A DNA stretch of 64,000 nucleotides from a virus: IMG/VR virus record IMGVR_UViG_3300037063_000214. One strand, given 5' to 3'. The notes below the pieces were generated by a model that did not search any database, was not told where the DNA came from, and was given only the letters and a program-made list of their open reading frames with translations. A program made the position numbers and the translations under genes. Of this stretch, positions 9,192 through 49,293 are shown piece by piece; within the stretch, counting starts at the first letter, position 1, and each line of letters starts with the position of its first letter.

Positions 9192-9492
9192 CCGTACATG
9201 TATAACATGTACCGTTTAATTCCAGCGCATCTCCACAAGAAGGGCAGCGGTCAGATTCATCGAGATCTGATGGTTCGGTGGTATCTTCTAGAACTCTATC
9301 CAGATAGCAATAATCCATCATATCCTGGTGGGCCTTAATGTACGCTTTTCGCAAACTATTGAATTTTTTATCTTTGAATTCTTTAAAATCCCAGTTCTGC
9401 AAAACATAATCCAAACTTCCTTCCCACTCTATTTTGGCGTTAAATTCTCGTGCGTTCTCAATGGACAACAGTGGTTTATTTTTTCTCTTCAT
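9172..9492 (-). CDS. hypothetical protein with C-terminal zinc ribbon
   Basis: 106-aa ORF containing CPSCG...CYTC. Confidence 0.4.
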   Translation of the reverse strand: MKRKNKPLLSIENAREFNAKIEWEGSLDYVLQNWDFKEFKDKKFNSLRKAYIKAHQDMMDYCYLDRVLEDTTEPSDLDESDRCPSCGDALELNGTCYTCTGEQNEN

Positions 9493-9521
9493 CGTAACTC
9501 CTTACGATAATACCATAAAGT

Positions 9522-9610
9522 TGGCCGAGAGAAAGGGATTCGAACCCTTGATACCTTACGGTATACCAGTTTTCAAGACTGGCGGCATAATCCATCTCGC
9601 CCATCTCTCG
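9522..9610 (-). tRNA. tRNA-Ser (anticodon UGA)
   Basis: Manual fold: acceptor CGAGAGA/TCTCTCG, discriminator G and CCA. Anticodon stem CCAGT/ACTGG with loop CTTGAAA. 16-nt variable arm. T-arm AAGGG-TTCGAAT-CCCTT. Confidence 0.85.
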
Positions 9611-9617
9611 GTAAAGG

Positions 9618-9704
9618 CAGAGAGTACCGGACTCGAACCGGTGTGCCCTATTTCTAGAAGCAGTCGCTTTCGAGGCGACCTACCATGCCCACTGGTTACT
9701 CTCT
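9618..9704 (-). tRNA. tRNA-Ser (anticodon CGA)
   Basis: Acceptor AGAGAGT/ACTCTCT. Anticodon stem GTCGC/GCGAC with loop CTCGAAA. Long variable arm. T-arm ACCGG-TTCGAGT-CCGGT. CCA not fully encoded. Confidence 0.8.
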
Positions 9705-9709
9705 AAACT

Positions 9710-9798
9710 TGGCGATGACAGACCGATTCGAACGATCGATACCTTGCGGTATGGTAGCTTTCCAAGCTACTGGGTTAATCCATCTCCCCCATGTCATC
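9710..9798 (-). tRNA. tRNA-Ser (anticodon GGA)
   Basis: Acceptor GATGACA/TGTCATC, discriminator G and CCA. Anticodon stem GTAGC/GCTAC with loop TTGGAAA. Long variable arm. T-arm GATCG-TTCGAAT-CGGTC. Confidence 0.8.
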
Positions 9799-9897
9799 AA
9801 ATCGCAGGGAACATAAAACATACAGTTGGTACAACTCCACTGCCGGGTTTCCCCCAGTGGGTATCGAAGTAACTGTACGCAACACCGCTGCGAATTT

Positions 9898-10347
9898 TTA
9901 CTCTTCTGGACCTTCACCGACTTCGATGAAGTCCATTAAATCTTCCCCACCAGCATATTTACTAGTGTTACCGCCTAGCCATCCGTTAAAAGCTCCCTGC
10001 TCTGTGGCTTTACGAATACCTTCAACTAAAAACAACCAGGCATCGTATGGCATGTCCCTGCGTAGATAGTTGCATCGCATACATGCTGGATTGACATTCG
10101 TCTTTAAATGACCTAAGCTATTATCTATTCTATCCAAGGTCATCCTTATTTTTGTCTCTCCGCAGTAAAAACATCCATTGCTAATTTTATCCTTAATAAA
10201 GTCTTTGTCAAGATCATTTTCCCGAAGCAATTTTTTATCTGAGCTACGAGAATCTCGCCAAATAATGCTAGGTAAAAATTTAGGATCTTGCCTACGCCTT
10301 TTAGCCCAACGATGCCGTTTTTCCCTACAAACTATTTTAGTGTCCAT
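9898..10347 (-). CDS. HNH endonuclease
   Basis: CFYCGE...LDRIDN..GH...NVNPACMRCN motif. Confidence 0.7.
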   Translation of the reverse strand: MDTKIVCREKRHRWAKRRRQDPKFLPSIIWRDSRSSDKKLLRENDLDKDFIKDKISNGCFYCGETKIRMTLDRIDNSLGHLKTNVNPACMRCNYLRRDMPYDAWLFLVEGIRKATEQGAFNGWLGGNTSKYAGGEDLMDFIEVGEGPEE

Positions 10348-10379
10348 GCTAAGAACACAGAAAGTTTGTTTTGATGTTA

Positions 10380-10469
10380 TGGCGGAAGTGCCGAGGCTCG
10401 AACTCGGATAGCCCTTTCAGGCTTCGGCGGCTTAGCAAACCGCTGGTTTAACCATTCACCCACACTTCC
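10380..10469 (-). tRNA. tRNA-Ser (anticodon GCU)
   Basis: Acceptor GGAAGTG/CACTTCC, discriminator G and CCA. Anticodon stem GCGGT/GCCGC with loop TTGCTAA. 20-nt variable arm. T-arm CCGAG-TTCGAGC-CTCGG. Confidence 0.85.
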
Positions 10470-11813: not shown

Positions 11814-12320
11814 CTATTTTCGCTTGGTTTTGGGCTTCGCTTTCATTTTTATCGGATATAGTCTGATCTTTTGCGAGACATAATTTTTAAGATCGCAAGA
11901 GTCTGACACACTACCATCAGTTCCAATAGTTGTGATATCCATTATCTCCACGGGAATAATTTTACATGTACCATATGCATCATCCGAATTCTTGTTCCAA
12001 GAATTCAAAGCTTCTTGAGCTGCTTCCTTAGTGAAGTAAGTATGGAATCCTGTTTTATAAGTTTTCCAACCACCTACGAAGAGCGTAGCCTCGTCGCCGC
12101 CGGTTCCGGCGCGAATTTCGAGGACGACGGTCAAGCCTTTTTCATCCCACTCCCAAGAAGCGATTCTATCACCTGGCGTATCTGTTTGCCAGGTGATCGT
12201 TATAGAATTGTTCTTAAAACAGGAGAGTGCTTTCTTACCCCGTAAGACAATCTTCCAAGCTTTTATAGGACCTGGGATTGGCTGATCTTCATGATTTTCA
12301 AGTATGCGAGCGAGACACAT
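11814..12320 (-). CDS. member of the MCL-AWKIV / Lys-tail paralog family (P1)
   Basis: Shares N-terminal MCL...AWKIV, central GFH.Y.T, IPVEI..ITT.G.DG and a C-terminal NYV.QKIRL.P..K-rich tail with 12324-12746, 34235-34669 and the fragments at 33131-33370 and 34093-34266. Confidence 0.5.
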   Translation of the reverse strand: MCLARILENHEDQPIPGPIKAWKIVLRGKKALSCFKNNSITITWQTDTPGDRIASWEWDEKGLTVVLEIRAGTGGDEATLFVGGWKTYKTGFHTYFTKEAAQEALNSWNKNSDDAYGTCKIIPVEIMDITTIGTDGSVSDSCDLKNYVSQKIRLYPIKMKAKPKTKRK

Positions 12321-16005: not shown

Positions 16006-17937
16006 TTACTTGCCTAGCAGGGTAATCGTAACCCTACGATTTTGAGCCTTCCCTTCGGCTGTAGCGTTAGAAGCTACGGGGTCTTGAGAACCGTGACCCG
16101 TGGCTTTGAAACGCTTTGCCGGGAAGTTTGTCGGCCAGTTTGTGTGCAGGTATGTAACCACAGCGGCCGCACGTCCCTTTGATAGTTCAAGGTTGTGATC
16201 TTCATTGCCTGTGCTGTCTGTATAGCCATCGACCTGAATAAACGCTCCGGTGATTGCCCAGCCATCCTTCAATTGCTTCAACTGTGCCTCACCAGCCTCG
16301 GTAAGTTTCGCTTCATTCGTCTTGAAGTTGATATCATAGGCACGCTGACCAATGACACTTCCCGTAGCTTGCTGTTCATACGCTGGTTCCGCTGCTTCGG
16401 AGCCGGTGTTGTTATCCCCGCTGAGTATATCCTTCGCTCCCTGGATGAAAGACTTATCTTCCACAAGCTTCACATCAGGAATTGGAGTCTCTTTGAACAA
16501 AGTTGGGTATTGCTGTACATCAATGTTCGCAAAGAGCGTATAAGTTGAGCGGAAGTTGTCATTCCCCTTATCCTTCATACCAAACAAGATAAGGTTATCA
16601 TCCAAGTTGTTCACAGACGAACCGCCTAGTTCGACTATCTGCCCCGTGGTGGGATCCTTGTACGGAACACCCTTGTAATAACGGTACCAGTAGTCTCCGT
16701 TTTCGTTTGGAGCATCACCCTTATCGTCATAAACATCGGATGAAATAGCTGCCGCCTTGTGCAGAGCCAAGTCAAACGCCTTCACTTGGTCGCCACCTTC
16801 GAAAGTAGCAGCGAGCATGTTAGTGATTTCTTCCCGATTGTCTTGGAAAAACTTTGCCGGACCAATAATCACAGCGGGCATCTGACTGCGATTTTGTTTG
16901 GAAGAAACAACCTTCACTACGCCGCCCTTCTTCGTCACGGCTACAACATCTCCGGGTGTCCAAGTCACAAGGGAGTTTACACAGACATGCACCATATCCC
17001 CTGTAGGACGCCCCGCATGCACGAGTTTACGATCTTCGCACTTACCGGCGACATAATCTGTAGCGGCGGTGTTGTAATCCGGAGCATTGATCCAGTTAAC
17101 TGCATCTGGATCGAAAGTCTTTTCGTCCGGGTTATTGGGGATGGCGTTATCACCAGCCCACTTTAAGGCGATGTTCCAATCACCATCACGAAGAACGCCT
17201 TCAACCAATAGGCCAGTAATTTCCTGACCCTTGGAATCTTGCGACCCAGGCATAGGGGATTGATTGAAAGACTTGGAATCTTTCTTTACATTCGGAGGGG
17301 CCAAAAAGGCATCTTCTCCGCGGCTATATCCAGTTGCGGCGATAACCTTGAGCGTATACTTCGAAACGCAGCCCTTTGGCTTTCCCTTGCAGTCCAAGTC
17401 ATAAAGCTTTGGATTGGTAGCAGCTGCAAATTGCCCCGCACCGTCGCCCATGATAATAACATAGTTCGCTCCGGTGGAACAATCCGTAGACCCCCCCGCT
17501 AGCTGGCTGGCACAAGCGATCAAATCCAATTGCATTTGATCGGTGAGATCTTGCCTCTTAAGTGTCAGATTAACATTACGCTTTGCCATCAGGGAACCAG
17601 CGGTTGTATGTTTACCGCCGTTTGCCAATAGATGACCTAACATAGCATTCCATTCCCAAACTTCTCCGATGATAGGCGTATTAGAAACGGTTGCCGGTGT
17701 GCTTTGTGGTAGGGGTGCCGGTACAACATTCGCAACCTGTGCATCTTTCACTTCTGGAAGTGAAATGTGGGATGGGACAATCGCCTTCATGATGTTGGGA
17801 GTTGGCATCCAGCCCCGTTCCATCGCTGTCTTACCTAAGAAACAGAGTCCTACAACTCCAACAATAACCAAAAGAACCTTCGCTTGTGGGGTAACATGTC
17901 CAGCCATAAATTTTTCTCCTCGTAAATTAAGATGCAA
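16006..17937 (-). CDS. membrane-anchored periplasmic protein with a C-terminal OmpA-like peptidoglycan-binding domain; the middle region may be an ABC substrate-binding domain
   Basis: N-terminal TM helix. C-terminal motif QVDGYTDSTGNEDHNLELSKGRAAAV is the classic OmpA_C signature. Confidence 0.55.
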   Translation of the reverse strand: MHLNLRGEKFMAGHVTPQAKVLLVIVGVVGLCFLGKTAMERGWMPTPNIMKAIVPSHISLPEVKDAQVANVVPAPLPQSTPATVSNTPIIGEVWEWNAMLGHLLANGGKHTTAGSLMAKRNVNLTLKRQDLTDQMQLDLIACASQLAGGSTDCSTGANYVIIMGDGAGQFAAATNPKLYDLDCKGKPKGCVSKYTLKVIAATGYSRGEDAFLAPPNVKKDSKSFNQSPMPGSQDSKGQEITGLLVEGVLRDGDWNIALKWAGDNAIPNNPDEKTFDPDAVNWINAPDYNTAATDYVAGKCEDRKLVHAGRPTGDMVHVCVNSLVTWTPGDVVAVTKKGGVVKVVSSKQNRSQMPAVIIGPAKFFQDNREEITNMLAATFEGGDQVKAFDLALHKAAAISSDVYDDKGDAPNENGDYWYRYYKGVPYKDPTTGQIVELGGSSVNNLDDNLILFGMKDKGNDNFRSTYTLFANIDVQQYPTLFKETPIPDVKLVEDKSFIQGAKDILSGDNNTGSEAAEPAYEQQATGSVIGQRAYDINFKTNEAKLTEAGEAQLKQLKDGWAITGAFIQVDGYTDSTGNEDHNLELSKGRAAAVVTYLHTNWPTNFPAKRFKATGHGSQDPVASNATAEGKAQNRRVTITLLGK

Positions 17938-25051: not shown

Positions 25052-25822
25052 CTAGTTCGGTTCGGGTAGCTTGGTAGGAAATAAGAATGTAAACTCAGCA
25101 GATGAAATTTCTTTGCGTTTACCATCGGGATCAGCAATAAAATACTGCTTTGGGTCATAACCCCTAATCTCCCCAGAAAGCTTCTCCCAAAGCTTTACCT
25201 GCCGCACTTTTTCGTAGCCTCCGAACTGCTGGCCCACCTTGTAAGCAGCATCATCTTCAGTCTGCACCACGTAGCCTCCGAACTGCGTATACTGACCCAC
25301 CTTGTAAGCAGCATCATCTTCAGTCTGCAACACCCGTTTTGCTAAGTGATATTTATATTGAAGTTTGTCATGCCATTTTGGGTGAGCGATTTTAATATTT
25401 GGAAGGCGTTTAAGATTTGTGAGGAGGTCTGCGATTTTAACTAGTCTTCCGCCTTTCGACGCGCGGGCTCGATAAATAAAATCACGATAAAATTCTTTTA
25501 TTCCATCGGATTCACGTCGGGTAACGGAATCTACGATATCTGCAACCACATCTCCGAATTCTTTACGAACCTGATCAAGAGAAAAATCAGTGTCTTCAAC
25601 CACATCGTGAAGTACAGCCGCTACTAAAAGTTGCTCTTTTGTAGCTCCATATAAAACGGGAAGGCAACAATCTGGAGTTTCATTGGGGGCACATTCCAGT
25701 TCTTTTTTTACAGCAAACATGACCTCTAAGCTGTGAAGAATGTGAGGGTCACCATCCGAGTCTATTTGCCCATGGTGTGCTTTCAGCGCCAGCTCAATAG
25801 CTATTTCGAGTAAACTACTCAT
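25052..25822 (-). CDS. HD-domain (p)ppGpp hydrolase-like protein (small alarmone hydrolase / Mesh1-like), with an internal 16-aa tandem duplication
   Basis: HHGQ...DPHILHSLEV and AAVLHDVVEDTD match the RelA/SpoT HD hydrolase signatures. A 48-bp tandem DNA repeat near 25215-25310 encodes a duplicated ...TEDDAAYKVGQ. Confidence 0.7.
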   Translation of the reverse strand: MSSLLEIAIELALKAHHGQIDSDGDPHILHSLEVMFAVKKELECAPNETPDCCLPVLYGATKEQLLVAAVLHDVVEDTDFSLDQVRKEFGDVVADIVDSVTRRESDGIKEFYRDFIYRARASKGGRLVKIADLLTNLKRLPNIKIAHPKWHDKLQYKYHLAKRVLQTEDDAAYKVGQYTQFGGYVVQTEDDAAYKVGQQFGGYEKVRQVKLWEKLSGEIRGYDPKQYFIADPDGKRKEISSAEFTFLFPTKLPEPN

Positions 25823-33968: not shown

Positions 33969-34046
33969 TGGTCGGCGCGGCAGGATTCGAACCTGCACCT
34001 TGCTCCTTAAGAGGGAGATATGCTAACCGTTAAACAACACGCGCCG
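33969..34046 (-). tRNA. tRNA-Lys (anticodon CUU)
   Basis: Acceptor CGGCGCG/CGCGCCG, discriminator A and CCA. Anticodon loop CTCTTAA. 5-nt variable loop. T-arm GCAGG-TTCGAAT-CCTGC. D-arm irregular. Confidence 0.7.
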
Positions 34047-34672: not shown

Positions 34673-34996
34673 TCACTCCAAGGGAATATTAGCAAAATTA
34701 TCTTCGATCAATTCAGAAAAATATTTGCGTCTTTCCAAAATGTATCTTTTAACATCCGAGGCTTTGATACCGTACTCTACTAGCTCTTCTTGTGCCACGA
34801 CGGAGCGAAGGTATTCTTCTACTGGAACGGACACATATTCTTCCCTGTAGAAAGGCTCTCTGACTCCTTTTATATCCCAATTCGGCACCTTGATGACATG
34901 ATCAAATATGTAAATTTCTGTCTCCAACTGTCGAACACAAAATCGCACTTGAGAATCGAATACTGTAATGGCTCGATAGCCCAGAGATTTACTCAC
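34673..34996 (-). CDS. hypothetical protein
   Basis: 107-aa ORF. Confidence 0.4.
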   Translation of the reverse strand: MSKSLGYRAITVFDSQVRFCVRQLETEIYIFDHVIKVPNWDIKGVREPFYREEYVSVPVEEYLRSVVAQEELVEYGIKASDVKRYILERRKYFSELIEDNFANIPLE

Positions 34997-35834
34997 TCGT
35001 TGCCGCCTTTCTCACCAGTATATCATTTTCCCAAGCATATGGAATTAAATCTCTCAAATAATTCCGATTTCGAGTAAACACCGGCGTATTTTCGTCAATT
35101 ACCCAGTTGGTATTTCCGATGGTTACTGAGTCAATTTTCCGAATTATGCGTCCGTGCTTAAAAGAAGCTGGGTGCTTTGCCCAATTGTCGCCTGCGGCTT
35201 GAATAATTTCGTGTTGCGCTGCACGATTTTTTCCGTGAAGTTGTTTGTGACTGGCGTATGCTTGTGCCAGCATGGTTACGCTATTTCGTTCAGCGTCCTG
35301 TTGTCGCCAAACATAGTAATTTTCGACTTCAACCAGATCAGGAATCGTGAATACCCTAGCGTCAAACATAGCGTTCATGAGTTTTTTACCGCCAAGCAAA
35401 GATGTATCACGGGCAGACGTTACCAGCCAGCCTTCTCCGAAGGAGTCGCGGAGCGCCAGCTTCTGGTAGTAGCCGACTTGAAGGTTAAATGCCGTTGTAG
35501 CGATGGAAGCCCCCACGCTCACCCATTTCTGTATCACACCATCAAACCAGGGCTCAGTTTTGATATCGAGAAAATCCACAGCCAATAAACTGATTTCATC
35601 GGATTGAATGTAGGCGAATTGAGCCCCGCTGATTTGCTCACAAAGTGCCCTTGCTGCGGCATTCATGCAGTCCATAAATTGCTTGTCGTAGGGCTTTGCC
35701 AGTCCTTTAGTCCATGTATGGAAAGCTCTGCCAACGCGAAGAATGGTGTAAGTACGCTTCGGCAGAAGAAAACGGTACACATTTTCATGCCGTTTCATCC
35801 GATCACCCAGGGAATCGGCTTTAGATTTGCTCAT
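34989..35834 (-). CDS. Thg1-like protein (tRNA-His guanylyltransferase / 3'-5' polymerase family)
   Basis: N-terminal region aligns by eye to Thg1 (YTILRVGRAFHTWTKGLAKPYD versus [25 protein letters not shown]) and the AYIQSDEISLL region to the GQSDE motif. The first catalytic Asp (RLDG) appears to be deleted. Confidence 0.65.
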   Translation of the reverse strand: MSKSKADSLGDRMKRHENVYRFLLPKRTYTILRVGRAFHTWTKGLAKPYDKQFMDCMNAAARALCEQISGAQFAYIQSDEISLLAVDFLDIKTEPWFDGVIQKWVSVGASIATTAFNLQVGYYQKLALRDSFGEGWLVTSARDTSLLGGKKLMNAMFDARVFTIPDLVEVENYYVWRQQDAERNSVTMLAQAYASHKQLHGKNRAAQHEIIQAAGDNWAKHPASFKHGRIIRKIDSVTIGNTNWVIDENTPVFTRNRNYLRDLIPYAWENDILVRKAATSE

Positions 35835-35887
35835 ATAAAGTTGGATGCAAATAGATAAGAAATAATACAGTAAAATTTTGGAGTTGT

Positions 35888-36472
35888 CTAGCCCAATAGA
35901 TTGTTGACGATATCGGCTAAAAGGAAAGATGTCTGCTTGGGAATGCCTGGGTTGGTGGGGGAAATTGGTGCTTGAGGAACCGTGGCTTCTTCTGTACGAT
36001 GTACTGCGGGAACAACTTCAGCGGCATTAGGAGTTCCATATTTTTGAAGAAAATCAACTAGTTCATCTTGAGATGAGGCAACGGCCAGTTTGCTGAAATC
36101 CTTGAAAGTGGCTCGCGGCTTAAATGTGGAGAATGTGAAAGACAAAGTTCGTATACCCTCACCACCAGTTCCTCTGTAAACAAAATCATCGTTCCCCAGT
36201 TTCAAACCGCTGCCGTGTAGGTAATAAATAATATCTCCGGAGAGAGGCAATGCAACCGCTACTTCGCTGACTTGTACATCTTCTTCCTGTACATCCTCGC
36301 TATCAGCTACGGCTTCTCTAGCAGCGTCTAAAATATTAGGATTGGTAGTGATCCCGTAGATATGCAACCTCATATCCTTTATGGAGTCAGCATCAAGCAT
36401 CTCCAAAAGATCAAGGGTATCCCGCATTTCAACAATTTTAGATTCTTCGACTTCAACAAAACGTGGTGGCAT
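35888..36472 (-). CDS. hypothetical protein
   Basis: 194-aa ORF. Confidence 0.4.
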   Translation of the reverse strand: MPPRFVEVEESKIVEMRDTLDLLEMLDADSIKDMRLHIYGITTNPNILDAAREAVADSEDVQEEDVQVSEVAVALPLSGDIIYYLHGSGLKLGNDDFVYRGTGGEGIRTLSFTFSTFKPRATFKDFSKLAVASSQDELVDFLQKYGTPNAAEVVPAVHRTEEATVPQAPISPTNPGIPKQTSFLLADIVNNLLG

Positions 36473-36844: not shown

Positions 36845-37267
36845 TTATATTTTTATATTTTCAAGGATTTTTCGCTCAGTTTTCAAGTCTCGATTCACTG
36901 CCCGATCTTCGGAGAATTTTTCCCCATATCGTGCTTTCAGTTTAGCAATATTGTTTTCCATGATGGTTGGAAAATCAATACCGATTTCATTGCTGAATAT
37001 AGCCAAATACCACAGGCAGTCACCGACCTCTTCTGCAATATTTACTATGTCAAGGGGGGTGCCGTAAAATATATGCTTCTTTAAAGCGTCGGCTATTTCT
37101 CCACCTTCAGTTTGAATGCCTAAAGAACCGTGAAGAAGACGAATCGTTCTTTCATTAGAAAGACGCTTAGCTATGGTTGAAAAATCTGTACTTTCAGTGC
37201 GGGACGCTAATTGTTGGTATTGATGCTCCCAGAGTAAACTCTGGGGATTCCTGTCCGAGTTAGACAT
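36845..37267 (-). CDS. MazG-like nucleotide pyrophosphohydrolase
   Basis: EEVGDCLWYL and the surrounding all-alpha NTP-PPase pattern. The longer upstream extension (to 37351) overlaps the tnpB 3' end and is probably not translated. Confidence 0.55.
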   Translation of the reverse strand: MSNSDRNPQSLLWEHQYQQLASRTESTDFSTIAKRLSNERTIRLLHGSLGIQTEGGEIADALKKHIFYGTPLDIVNIAEEVGDCLWYLAIFSNEIGIDFPTIMENNIAKLKARYGEKFSEDRAVNRDLKTERKILENIKI

Positions 37268-38345
37268 AAGCCAACTCCTCGTGGGCACATCCTGCCCCGG
37301 CGAATAGCGTGTTACGAGCCGCATTGACATCGCGGTCGTACTCTGCTCCACAAGCAGAACATCGCCATTGCCTTACCGACAATTCTGCAAGTCCTGTGGG
37401 TCCTGTCGGATTACCACATTCGTTACAGGTCTTGGTGGAATACTTGGAAGCAACTTCGATAAACGTCCCACCGCTTTTGGGCATCTTGTAGGACAACATC
37501 TGTCGAATTTGTGCGTGAGATGAACTGCTCACGCTCTTCCCGAATCGTTTTGCGATTCCCTTGATTGCATCTTTGCTCCAAACTATGAGCACGTTCTCAG
37601 ATACCAGCTTCGTTGTTAGCTTGTGGTTCCTATCTTTCTTGCGGTTGGCGATGCGCTCCTGAATCCTCGCTGCCAACTGTTTGTTGTGACCACGCTGTGC
37701 TTGTCCAAGACGCTCTGCTGCCGCTTCTAACTCCCGTGGGTGTTCGATGACCTCTCCATCCGAAGTTGTGAGCAGGTTTGAAAATCCGGGATCAATGCCT
37801 ATCGCCCCAAACGCCAAACGCTTAATCGGATTCGGCTCTGCGTCTATGAATAGACACAGATACCATCCAGACGCACGCTTGATCAATCGTCCACACTTGA
37901 TCTTTCCCTCTGATATTTCCTGCTTGTGAAAGCGGACACTGCCCAAACCCGGAAGCGTAATGCGGTTGCCTTTTGGTGCCTTGATGGGATCGGGGAACGG
38001 GATGCTGGACATCTTGTTACGCATCCCTTTGAGTTTTGGTTTGCCTGCGGTCTTCTTAAAGCAACGCTTCCACGCATCGTGGACGGTGCAGAGCACGCCC
38101 TGAATTGTGTGGCTCGGTATACCCAACTTCTCTCCGTGGTTCGCCAACAAGTTTTGAAAATCGTTCTTGGAGAAGTAGATTTTGTCCTTGGCGTTTAGCT
38201 CGATCTTGCGGACGGCAAAGTTGTAAACCGAAGCCAAATTATAGAGCCACTGGTCGTAGATTTGTTCTTGCGCCTTACAAGGTCGAAGTTTGAGTTGGAC
38301 TTGTAGCATAGTGTCTAATACCGCCTAATAAGGTATTCGCTTATC
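37150..38345 (-). mobile_element. solo IS605/IS1341-type insertion (tnpB without tnpA); approximate ends
   Basis: tnpB has compositional contrast with its flanks and no Y1 transposase gene adjacent. Palindromic sequence at 38311-38343. Confidence 0.5.
37260..38309 (-). CDS. tnpB: TnpB (IS200/IS605-family OrfB; RNA-guided nuclease family)
   Basis: N-terminal OrfB_IS605 pattern. C-terminal zinc finger CNECG...CSACG with RuvC-III-like DVNAARN. GC-rich relative to flanks. Confidence 0.8.
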   Translation of the reverse strand: MLQVQLKLRPCKAQEQIYDQWLYNLASVYNFAVRKIELNAKDKIYFSKNDFQNLLANHGEKLGIPSHTIQGVLCTVHDAWKRCFKKTAGKPKLKGMRNKMSSIPFPDPIKAPKGNRITLPGLGSVRFHKQEISEGKIKCGRLIKRASGWYLCLFIDAEPNPIKRLAFGAIGIDPGFSNLLTTSDGEVIEHPRELEAAAERLGQAQRGHNKQLAARIQERIANRKKDRNHKLTTKLVSENVLIVWSKDAIKGIAKRFGKSVSSSSHAQIRQMLSYKMPKSGGTFIEVASKYSTKTCNECGNPTGPTGLAELSVRQWRCSACGAEYDRDVNAARNTLFAGAGCAHEELAYV

Positions 38346-48645: not shown

Positions 48646-49293
48646 TTAAGAAAAATACTTCCGGCGAAACATTCCAGCGATCCCTACGAGTCCTGTTCCC
48701 AACAGACCTAAAGTCCCTGGTTCAGGGGCGGAAATACTCGTAGAACCAAGCCCAATGTGCCCCACACCGCCATTCAATTGATTCTTGTTGAGTATATTGA
48801 TGGTTTGGGTAGTGTACCCAGTTGTAAAACGCCCATTCCAGAGTGTTCCAGACAACTCACCTGTTAAAGTGTAGGTTCGCTCCTGTTTATTTTGGGAGAT
48901 GAATGTCCAGTCAATAGGACCTACAAAGCTGCCGATAAAAATATTTCCCTTAGGTTGTCCAAATTTACCCTTACCGATAACATCGAAAGTGGACCCGGTA
49001 CTGGAAAATACCCCACCGTTTAGCACGCTTCCGCTTTCTAGCACGCCGGTAGAAAACCCTACATAACCAAGCGAATGCCCATGCGGAGCGGTTATTCCTT
49101 CAAAGTTTGTTAGCTCCGAACCGTGAGATGTAATGGTAGTTGAACCAATCGTGCCCATTCCACCTACGCCGATATCGCTAATACTTATGGTGCCGAATAG
49201 ATTCGTCAGAGTGATGGGATCGGCAGATGCCGCGGAAACAAACGAAAGCAAACTCAAAATTAACGCAAAAATTGTTACCTTACTTATTCTCAT
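48646..49293 (-). CDS. secreted PEP-CTERM domain protein
   Basis: N-terminal signal peptide. C-terminal PEP motif (APEPGTLGLLGTGLVGIAGMFRRKYFS: PEP, TM helix, basic cluster). Confidence 0.7.
   Translation of the reverse strand: MRISKVTIFALILSLLSFVSAASADPITLTNLFGTISISDIGVGGMGTIGSTTITSHGSELTNFEGITAPHGHSLGYVGFSTGVLESGSVLNGGVFSSTGSTFDVIGKGKFGQPKGNIFIGSFVGPIDWTFISQNKQERTYTLTGELSGTLWNGRFTTGYTTQTINILNKNQLNGGVGHIGLGSTSISAPEPGTLGLLGTGLVGIAGMFRRKYFS

Follow-up and report, generated by a model that had tools for sequence, protein, structure and literature searches.

A gene for a Thg1-like protein (TLP) in the phage genome represented by IMG/VR virus record IMGVR_UViG_3300037063_000214 has lost a single codon, that of the first metal-binding aspartate of the active site. 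The gene lies at positions 34989–35834 (minus strand) of the 64,000-nucleotide stretch that was analysed, hereafter called the window. We consider it fairly probable that this is a recent, lineage-private and fixed loss-of-function deletion in an accessory phage gene for tRNA repair, which retains an intact open reading frame (ORF) and is probably on its way to becoming a pseudogene. Enzymes of the Thg1-like family repair 5'-truncated tRNAs. They activate the 5' phosphate with ATP or GTP and then add the missing nucleotides in 3'-to-5' direction, for which the 3' strand of the acceptor stem serves as the template; two Mg2+ ions bound by two aspartates assist in this.

Results

The ORF of the TLP gene starts with ATG and encodes 281 amino acids without interruption, and by descent and fold the protein is a TLP of the bacterial type. 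Its N-terminal catalytic palm domain matched Pfam model PF04446 over positions 2–130 of 130 (82.7 bits against a cutoff of 29.2, E = 2.8e-23), and residues 6–264 aligned to profile positions 2–239 of the 250 positions of PHROG 4717 'tRNA-His guanylyltransferase' (E = 1.1e-70). Among solved structures, the best match by phmmer was the TLP of Bacillus thuringiensis (BtTLP, 4kgk; E = 9.9e-47), whereas eukaryotic Thg1 proteins from Candida, yeast and human matched far more weakly (E = 2.3e-9 to 1.6e-4), and Foldseek ranked these structures likewise. An AlphaFold2 (AF2) model of the TLP, built with 59 homologues, reached a predicted local distance difference test score (pLDDT) of 83.8 and a predicted template modelling score (pTM) of 0.81. 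With this model, all 32 Foldseek matches in the Protein Data Bank at E ≤ 0.001 were Thg1 or TLP structures, headed by 4kgm_B and 4kgk (E = 3.5e-20, target template modelling score 0.83). The C-terminal residues 155–263 aligned to BtTLP 126–236 (62.8 bits), and the model superposed over approximately 260 columns. No NCBIfam model matched the TLP, and the JGI annotation calls the gene 'tRNA(His) guanylyltransferase'. A preceding sequence-only reading, made without database searches, had assigned the protein to the Thg1-like nucleotidyltransferases and had named PF04446 and PF14413 (Thg1C) as well as structure prediction as means of verification. The assignment holds for PF04446, PHROG 4717, 4kgk and the AF2 model with its Foldseek matches to 4kgm/4kgk, while PF14413 gave no match at E ≤ 1.

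The missing aspartate is evident from pairwise, profile and DNA alignments. In the phmmer alignment with 4kgk, a one-residue gap stands opposite D30 of BtTLP ('ilrv.grafh' versus 'ivrIdGahFH'), and a hidden Markov model (HMM) built from 119 homologues, with the query left out, aligned the query as ILRV-GRAFH. Putting the Asp back into the query raised its score against this HMM by 10.2 bits. The nearest relative, a locus with 92% amino acid and 95% nucleotide identity (L011, protein P0002; hereafter the sister), reads CGC GTT GAT GGC where the window reads CGC GTT GGC. In the window, codon 34 (GTT, Val, 35735–35733) is directly followed by codon 35 (GGC, Gly, 35732–35730), and the junction between 35733 and 35732 (site 35730–35735, minus strand) marks a clean, in-frame loss of 3 nt corresponding to one codon. 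The Asp-bearing form of the site reads GTTGATGGC and the window form GTTGGC; due to an ancestral TG..TG microhomology (gtTGATGgc), it is ambiguous which exact 3 nt were lost. The window TLP is thus devoid of the first metal-binding carboxylate, located in the R-x-D-G motif and corresponding to D29 in the human enzyme, D30 in BtTLP and D21 in the TLP of Methanosarcina acetivorans (MaTLP).

The other active-site positions that were checked are preserved. The second metal-binding Asp and the conserved Glu are found in S78-D79-E80 (35595–35603, minus strand), equivalent to S74-D75-E76 of BtTLP and S75-D76-E77 of the human protein, in columns that are conserved in 119/119, 119/119 and 118/119 homologues, respectively. 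E17, R33, H39, K47, R160 and R177, which the alignment with 4kgk identifies as counterparts of residues implicated in activation and nucleotidyl transfer (PMC3701042), are also present. In the 59-sequence alignment, the columns of E17, R33, H39, S78, D79, E80, R160, R177 and N184 are invariant, and that of K47 is not. Altogether, the query agrees with the family in 92 of 95 columns with a conservation of at least 95%; besides the Asp, the departures are V76I and F174Y, both of them conservative and common to the Asp-bearing sister. Among the lineage-specific substitutions A105V, H212Q, K255R, N262D and A279T, none provides a compensating carboxylate near motif 1. Deletion of the first catalytic Asp next to an intact SDE motif had been proposed from a hand alignment, and both parts of this proposal stand: the profile alignment uncovered no shifted Asp. 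The motifs quoted at the time were approximately right, the actual residues being AKPYD (46–50) and IQSDE (76–80).

All 119 proteins that accompany the query among the 120 best homologues retained the Asp (D in 118/118 of the aligned column), as did 80/80 IMG/VR viral loci examined and 147 of the 148 diverse representatives at 50% identity that cover the site, which sums to 346 of 347 other sequences, although the three sets may overlap. The only deviating representative, P0230 (303 amino acids), has Asn in this position (R-L-N-G-R-S-F-H) together with an intact SDE motif and may be a second natural variant of the active site. The exact 281-residue protein of the window occurred in 100 sample blocks, on contigs of up to 178 kb in assemblies from JGI, ENA and Logan, and a derivative with the substitution W41R (protein P0121) in 46 more, giving a total of about 146. 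In the 90% cluster, the Asp was missing from all members with coverage of the site, and exact look-up among approximately 15 billion proteins returned no Asp-restored version of either haplotype. The deletion is therefore private to one nearly clonal, widely sampled lineage, in which it is fixed. Judging from names alone, sample labels such as 'WOOD18' and those of several JGI Ga03... sets suggest that the samples are peat or bog metagenomes.

The contribution of the deleted residue to catalysis has been described for related enzymes. The conserved carboxylates D30, D75 and E76 of BtTLP correspond to D29, D76 and E77 of human Thg1, and D30 and D75 coordinate two Mg2+ ions that contact the nucleotide triphosphate, whereas E76 faces away from the metals (PMC3701042). 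Activity was dramatically decreased in the D75A variant of BtTLP (PMC3701042), and mutation of either D29 or D76 markedly decreased G-1 addition by the human enzyme, as relayed in PMC4820378 and PMC3701042. In the complex of MaTLP with tRNA, D21 and D69 hold both metals together with the main-chain oxygen of G22 (PMC4820378). Only two side chains thus bind the pair of catalytic metals, and loss of the D30 equivalent eliminates one of them. The site is at the end of palm strand beta-1, where the deletion would remove a ligand of both metals and, as we infer from the sequence, would shift the register between R33 and the G35-x-x-F-H segment by one residue; in BtTLP, the equivalent R28 binds the incoming GTP by its phosphate. 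An enzyme altered in this way would be inactive or strongly impaired in activation as well as in nucleotidyl transfer, and by analogy to the mutagenesis and structures of its relatives, catalysis of 3'-5' addition is most likely lost or severely reduced. In the AF2 models, the N-terminal helix was less confident for the deletion allele than for the sister (pLDDT of 61 and 65 versus 81 and 80 for the blocks covering residues 11–30), but since this gap is within the variation between runs and alignments, we do not claim an effect on the helix.

BtTLP (4kgk, 4kgm) is the closest solved relative, with 34–36% identity and the same bacterial-type TLP architecture. Its residues E12, R28, S74, D75, E76, R131 and R147 correspond to E17, R33, S78, D79, E80, R160 and R177 of the phage-encoded query, whereas D30, the ligand of both Mg2+ ions, is without counterpart. 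The loop connecting the palm to the C-terminal half is approximately 25 residues longer in the query (119–154) than in BtTLP (115–125), and it exceeds the length found in most family members. It includes the 15-residue segment K125–T139, KLALRDSFGEGWLVT (35418–35462, minus strand), which is absent from the sister (45 nt) and lies in a region of variable length in the family (pLDDT of 62 for the block 131–140). MaTLP (5axk–5axn), the structures of which are the basis for understanding templated 3'-5' addition (PMC4820378), has about 25% identity to the query, which retains the equivalents of D69 and G22 but not of D21. Eukaryotic Thg1 proteins (human 3otb, yeast 5xox, Candida 3wbz) have the same two-metal site in the palm at about 20% identity (E = 2e-9 to 1e-4), but perform the non-templated addition of G-1 onto tRNA-His with recognition of the anticodon. 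The window allele is in effect a D29 knockout, with the difference that the engineered D29 and D76 variants are substitutions and not deletions.

Between the window and the sister, dN/dS of the TLP gene is 0.089 (Nei-Gojobori method; 21.5 synonymous and 7.5 nonsynonymous differences), compared to 0.050 and 0.042 for two neighbouring genes, which indicates that strong purifying selection acted on the TLP during most of its divergence from the sister. Either the deletion would be recent or the constraint would have lasted after the deletion had occurred. When amino acid differences between the two were polarised with the wider family, approximately five were assigned to the deletion branch, among them H212Q in a column with His in 91% of homologues, none clearly to the sister branch, and two were ambiguous.

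Within the deletion lineage, codon 41 (TGG, Trp, 35712–35714, minus strand) is polymorphic, and the W41R variant was present in 11 of 21 sampled deletion-allele loci, with frequency estimates between approximately one third and one half. All 119 close homologues have W or F in column 41, the equivalent of BtTLP Y37, which adjoins the nucleotide-stacking T38; W41R lowered the score against the family profile by a further 5.9 bits. The rarer variants G70V (G in 117/119) and N172T (N in 119/119) were each found on one contig. Like W41R, they affect strongly conserved columns and hint at decay. Across approximately 20 kb outside a hypervariable TnpB element, the 21 deletion-allele loci contained 38 single-nucleotide polymorphism (SNP) sites, of which 7 were synonymous, 17 nonsynonymous (2 in the TLP gene) and 14 intergenic. 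The SNP density in the TLP gene (2.4/kb) was about the regional mean. A block with SNPs in the TLP gene only exists just for the 3.7 kb around it, and we do not claim relaxed selection acting specifically on the TLP, as the gene was not distinguishable from the background. The genomic backgrounds of the deletion haplotype vary in their TnpB insertions or alleles as well as in indels and SNPs, indicating that the lineage persisted and diversified without the Asp.

The expectation that Thg1-like proteins are uncommon in viral genomes was not confirmed. They constitute a PHROG family, and the TLP matches 162 phage records in INPHARED, most of them from large phages of Bacillus, Caulobacter, Xanthomonas and Prevotella, and has relatives on at least 580 IMG/VR contigs. 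In addition, a review of jumbo phages describes Thg1 as a sporadic phage enzyme for the restoration of tRNA 5' ends (PMC7824862). The wider family comprises 6,671 clusters at 50% identity. Phage members of PHROG 4717 are encoded by Bacillus phages Eldridge, Bc431v3 and G, Xanthomonas phage XacN1 and huge-phage contigs in IMG/VR, for example; the query is 37–41% identical to the TLPs of isolated phages and 61–66% identical to those of three huge-phage contigs (L023–L025). These carriers are without exception large or jumbo phages, and besides tRNA genes they have further genes for RNA repair, which in the window are represented by RlaP. The R-x-D-G motif that all 80 viral loci examined have in common is missing from the window TLP. 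To our knowledge, no phage TLP has been characterised biochemically.

BtTLP is less inclined to add G-1 than to repair 5'-truncated tRNAs, whatever their identity (PMC3061083). Of the two roles proposed in the sequence-only reading, 5'-end repair and G-1 addition, the bacterial type of the TLP thus favours the former over the latter. The preference for 5'-truncated substrates and templated addition are properties of BtTLP and MaTLP (PMC3061083, PMC4820378), which are carried over to the intact ancestors of the window TLP by homology only. It is reasonable to suppose that these ancestors repaired tRNA 5' ends, by homology to enzymes with this activity (PMC3061083) and in line with what the literature on jumbo phages assumes (PMC7824862).

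The suggested connection to a tRNA island turned out to be weak. The window contains six tRNA genes, Leu-TAA and four Ser tRNAs at 8645–10469 and Lys-CTT at 33969–34046, but ARAGORN and Rfam detected no tRNA-His in its 64 kb. The cluster of five is 24.5 kb away from the TLP gene, and the sole tRNA gene nearby is tRNA-Lys(CTT) (33969–34046, minus strand; ARAGORN, Rfam 37.6 bits), 0.9 kb downstream, which has a normally paired 7-bp acceptor stem (C1-G72), an encoded CCA end and no sign of needing 5' editing. Among viral TLP loci, only about 9/60 have any tRNA gene within 6 kb and 4/60 have a tRNA-His gene. A functional tie between the TLP and the tRNA genes was therefore rejected as supporting evidence. 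Independent of this question, the cluster at 8645–10469 (minus strand) comprises, besides Leu(TAA), a complete serine-decoding set (TGA, CGA, GGA and GCT); four of the five genes were confirmed by Rfam, and Ser-CGA (9616–9704) was predicted by ARAGORN only. Partly similar arrays of Ser, Thr and Ile tRNAs, to which tRNA-His also belongs, accompany the TLP gene in three other viral loci (L026, L027 and L086).

The genes of the window, which has a GC content of about 44%, are nearly all on the minus strand. They encode RlaP, a protein resembling the major vault protein, a SprT-like protein, an ABC ATPase, an OmpA-domain protein, an NAD-dependent DNA ligase, an AAA ATPase, ribonucleotide reductase, a DnaB-like helicase, a dual-specificity phosphatase, a PEP-CTERM protein and a sigma-70-like factor, and the gene calls of matching contigs add methylases, NUDIX, ThyX-like, dCMP deaminase, TnpB and MazG proteins. 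The TLP gene is flanked upstream by g194 (194 amino acids, 35888–36472, minus strand) and downstream by g107 (107 amino acids, 34673–34996, minus strand), the start of which overlaps the TLP stop by 8 nt, suggesting that g107 is likely translationally coupled to the TLP. By tblastn, the order g194-TLP-g107 was also detected in L023–L025, which are IMG/VR phage contigs of 455–463 kb, and the phage is a member of this huge-phage clade. Both neighbours may be functional partners of the TLP; for g194, g107 and the further conserved neighbour g144, neither Pfam (E ≤ 0.1) nor PHROG gave a match. Megablast with 12 kb around the TLP gene gave no match in INPHARED, from which we conclude that the phage has no sequenced isolate relative. 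A promoter-like sequence, TAGACA-17-TATTAT (35862–35890, minus strand), is located 28 nt upstream of the TLP start, a weak candidate by its match to the consensus; the scan for promoters and terminators did not exceed chance expectation, with 3 promoter-like sites in the region compared to 5.3 in shuffled sequences.

Several other features of the window deserve mention. RlaP (1598–2431, minus strand) is a Pol-beta nucleotidyltransferase (PF10127, E = 2.4e-18; PHROG 388, E = 4.7e-46) of a family that is treated as an RNA-end repair enzyme associated with RNA ligase in the jumbo-phage literature (PMC7824862); of the window ORFs that were scanned, none was recognised as an RNA ligase. The adjoining gene (2708–5188, minus strand) encodes a protein of 826 amino acids with the shoulder domain of the major vault protein (PF11978, E = 3.6e-26) and a vault repeat (PF17795, E = 1.8e-8). 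A vault-like protein is unusual in a phage genome, and this one has no PHROG match. A hypervariable segment at 37230–38340 (minus strand) contains a TnpB/IS605 OrfB gene (37260–38309) that abuts MazG (36845–37351). Several divergent TnpB alleles exist among otherwise near-identical phage contigs, and MazG was called in some loci only, which suggests that an active TnpB element is moving or recombining in the phage population. An HD_4-domain gene (25052–25822, minus strand) has a cluster of SNPs plus an indel, with Q199* among the changes in L001 and L009 (product of 187 instead of 256 amino acids), which probably makes it the second gene of this population to carry a truncating polymorphism. 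An ORF of 168 amino acids near the tRNA cluster (11814–12320, minus strand) has a short match below threshold to the release-factor domain PCRF (E = 4e-4, 20.6 bits against a cutoff of 24), which may mean nothing. The PEP-CTERM protein (48646–49293, minus strand; PF07589, E = 4.7e-6) and a 643-residue protein with a C-terminal OmpA domain (16006–17937, minus strand) hint at a Gram-negative host with an exosortase system.

Discussion

In the reading that we favour, the loss of the Asp codon would be a recent and uncompensated event in a nearly clonal phage population, in which the accessory TLP gene is dispensable. The recent origin is suggested by the sister, which keeps GAT at 95% nucleotide identity, together with the low dN/dS and the agreement with the family in nearly all conserved columns, the dispensability by the diversification of the lineage without the Asp, and the accessory status by the sporadic occurrence of TLPs in phages (PMC7824862). 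The ORF would still be intact because too little time has passed for its decay, and possibly also because the downstream gene is translationally coupled to it. Several points weigh against this reading. The inactivity of the allele is deduced by analogy to relatives, in which the published mutations are substitutions and not deletions, and AF2 predicted the same fold for the deletion allele and the Asp-bearing sister (pLDDT of 84 and 83 at the site), a method that is, however, insensitive to lesions of this kind. No frameshift or stop codon was seen in the TLP gene across the approximately 146 sample blocks, and the dN/dS for the whole branch would also fit continued constraint after the deletion. 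The 5:0 asymmetry between the branches is a suggestive hint of decay, with a one-sided p of about 0.03 at best and outgroups of about 65% identity. Likewise, the ratio of 2 nonsynonymous to 0 synonymous SNPs in the TLP gene, compared to 15:7 in the flanking genes, gives a test without power. Finally, the search for a second, intact TLP by tblastn and six-frame HMM search found none, but covered the 64-kb window of a phage of at least 178 kb.

Alternatively, the protein without the Asp might have been retained as a pseudoenzyme that does not polymerise, but is under selection as a binder of tRNA acceptor stems or 5' ends. It might act as a shield for tRNA 5' ends, as a chaperone or as a decoy, or it might poison a TLP of the host through the formation of mixed tetramers. 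We regard such a function as unlikely, yet as the most serious competitor of early-stage gene loss. The ORF is intact in every sample, the other catalytic and substrate-contacting positions that were checked are conserved, the predicted fold appears unchanged, and the gene stays in the conserved g194-TLP-g107 block with its putative coupling to g107. However, a very recent deletion equally predicts an intact ORF and a low dN/dS for the whole branch; together with the conserved contacts, these features are expected under both readings and for this reason keep a pseudoenzyme under consideration. W41R, the commonest change after the deletion, is a radical substitution at an always-aromatic site near the nucleotide pocket and would not be expected under constraint. 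Moreover, the variant is confined to one nearly clonal lineage and is not a trait of a clade, there is no sign that the protein went through a phase of evolving as a binder, and a full-text literature search turned up no report of a non-catalytic Thg1 or TLP. The sequence-only reading had raised a changed mechanism or a binding-only role; the latter is possible but found no support. A deletion that is private to one lineage and shared with no close relative is more economically read as a recent loss-of-function allele, and ordinary gene loss at an early stage is more likely than retention of a pseudoenzyme.

In a more specific form of this alternative, which we consider quite doubtful, a reverse-polymerase pseudoenzyme would be retained by selection for binding tRNA 5' ends or acceptor stems, or for co-assembly with the TLP tetramer of the host, and W41R would be adaptive. 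Such a protein could, for example, protect phage or host tRNAs from attack at their 5' ends or block a step of tRNA quality control or defence in the host.

It is improbable that the enzyme is still catalytic through an altered coordination, in which D79, the main-chain carbonyl of G35 and perhaps E80 or water would hold one or two metals sufficiently for useful 3'-5' addition, possibly with a different preference for the metal or the nucleotide triphosphate. The second Asp, the Glu and the Gly, the backbone oxygen of which ligates the metal in MaTLP, are all present, and the lineage is ecologically successful. Nevertheless, substitution of either metal-binding Asp in related enzymes caused a marked to dramatic loss of activity (PMC4820378, PMC3701042). 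In BtTLP, the equivalent of the Glu faces away from the metals, the deletion would shift the strand register, no new acidic residue has appeared nearby, and the Asp is kept by 346 of 347 other sequences, which speaks against its being replaceable. A sequencing or assembly error in a phage that in reality has the GAT codon would require a difference of only 3 nt, but nothing else was found in its favour, and the recovery of the same deletion by differing pipelines and assemblers from all these sample blocks, at a site that is neither a homopolymer nor a repeat and for which the collection holds no Asp-bearing copy of either haplotype, reduces its probability to almost nil.

What is new here is an active-site deletion allele; the enzyme family is well known, and no new kind of system is described. 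Annotation pipelines would label the gene 'tRNA(His) guanylyltransferase', although catalysis is almost certainly lost, which calls for caution in assigning this function by homology. For the study of 3'-5' polymerases, the allele represents a clean natural knockout of the first metal-binding Asp, caught early in an abundant environmental phage, and thus a ready-made natural mutant of the TLP active site. As far as we know, the purpose of phage TLPs has never been put to the test. If the protein were retained in a non-catalytic role, it would be the first pseudoenzyme of the Thg1 family that we are aware of and would provide a handle on this purpose. If, as we consider more likely, the gene is in an early stage of ordinary loss, the phage would be able to do without TLP catalysis in its habitat, in keeping with the sporadic spread of TLPs among large phages.

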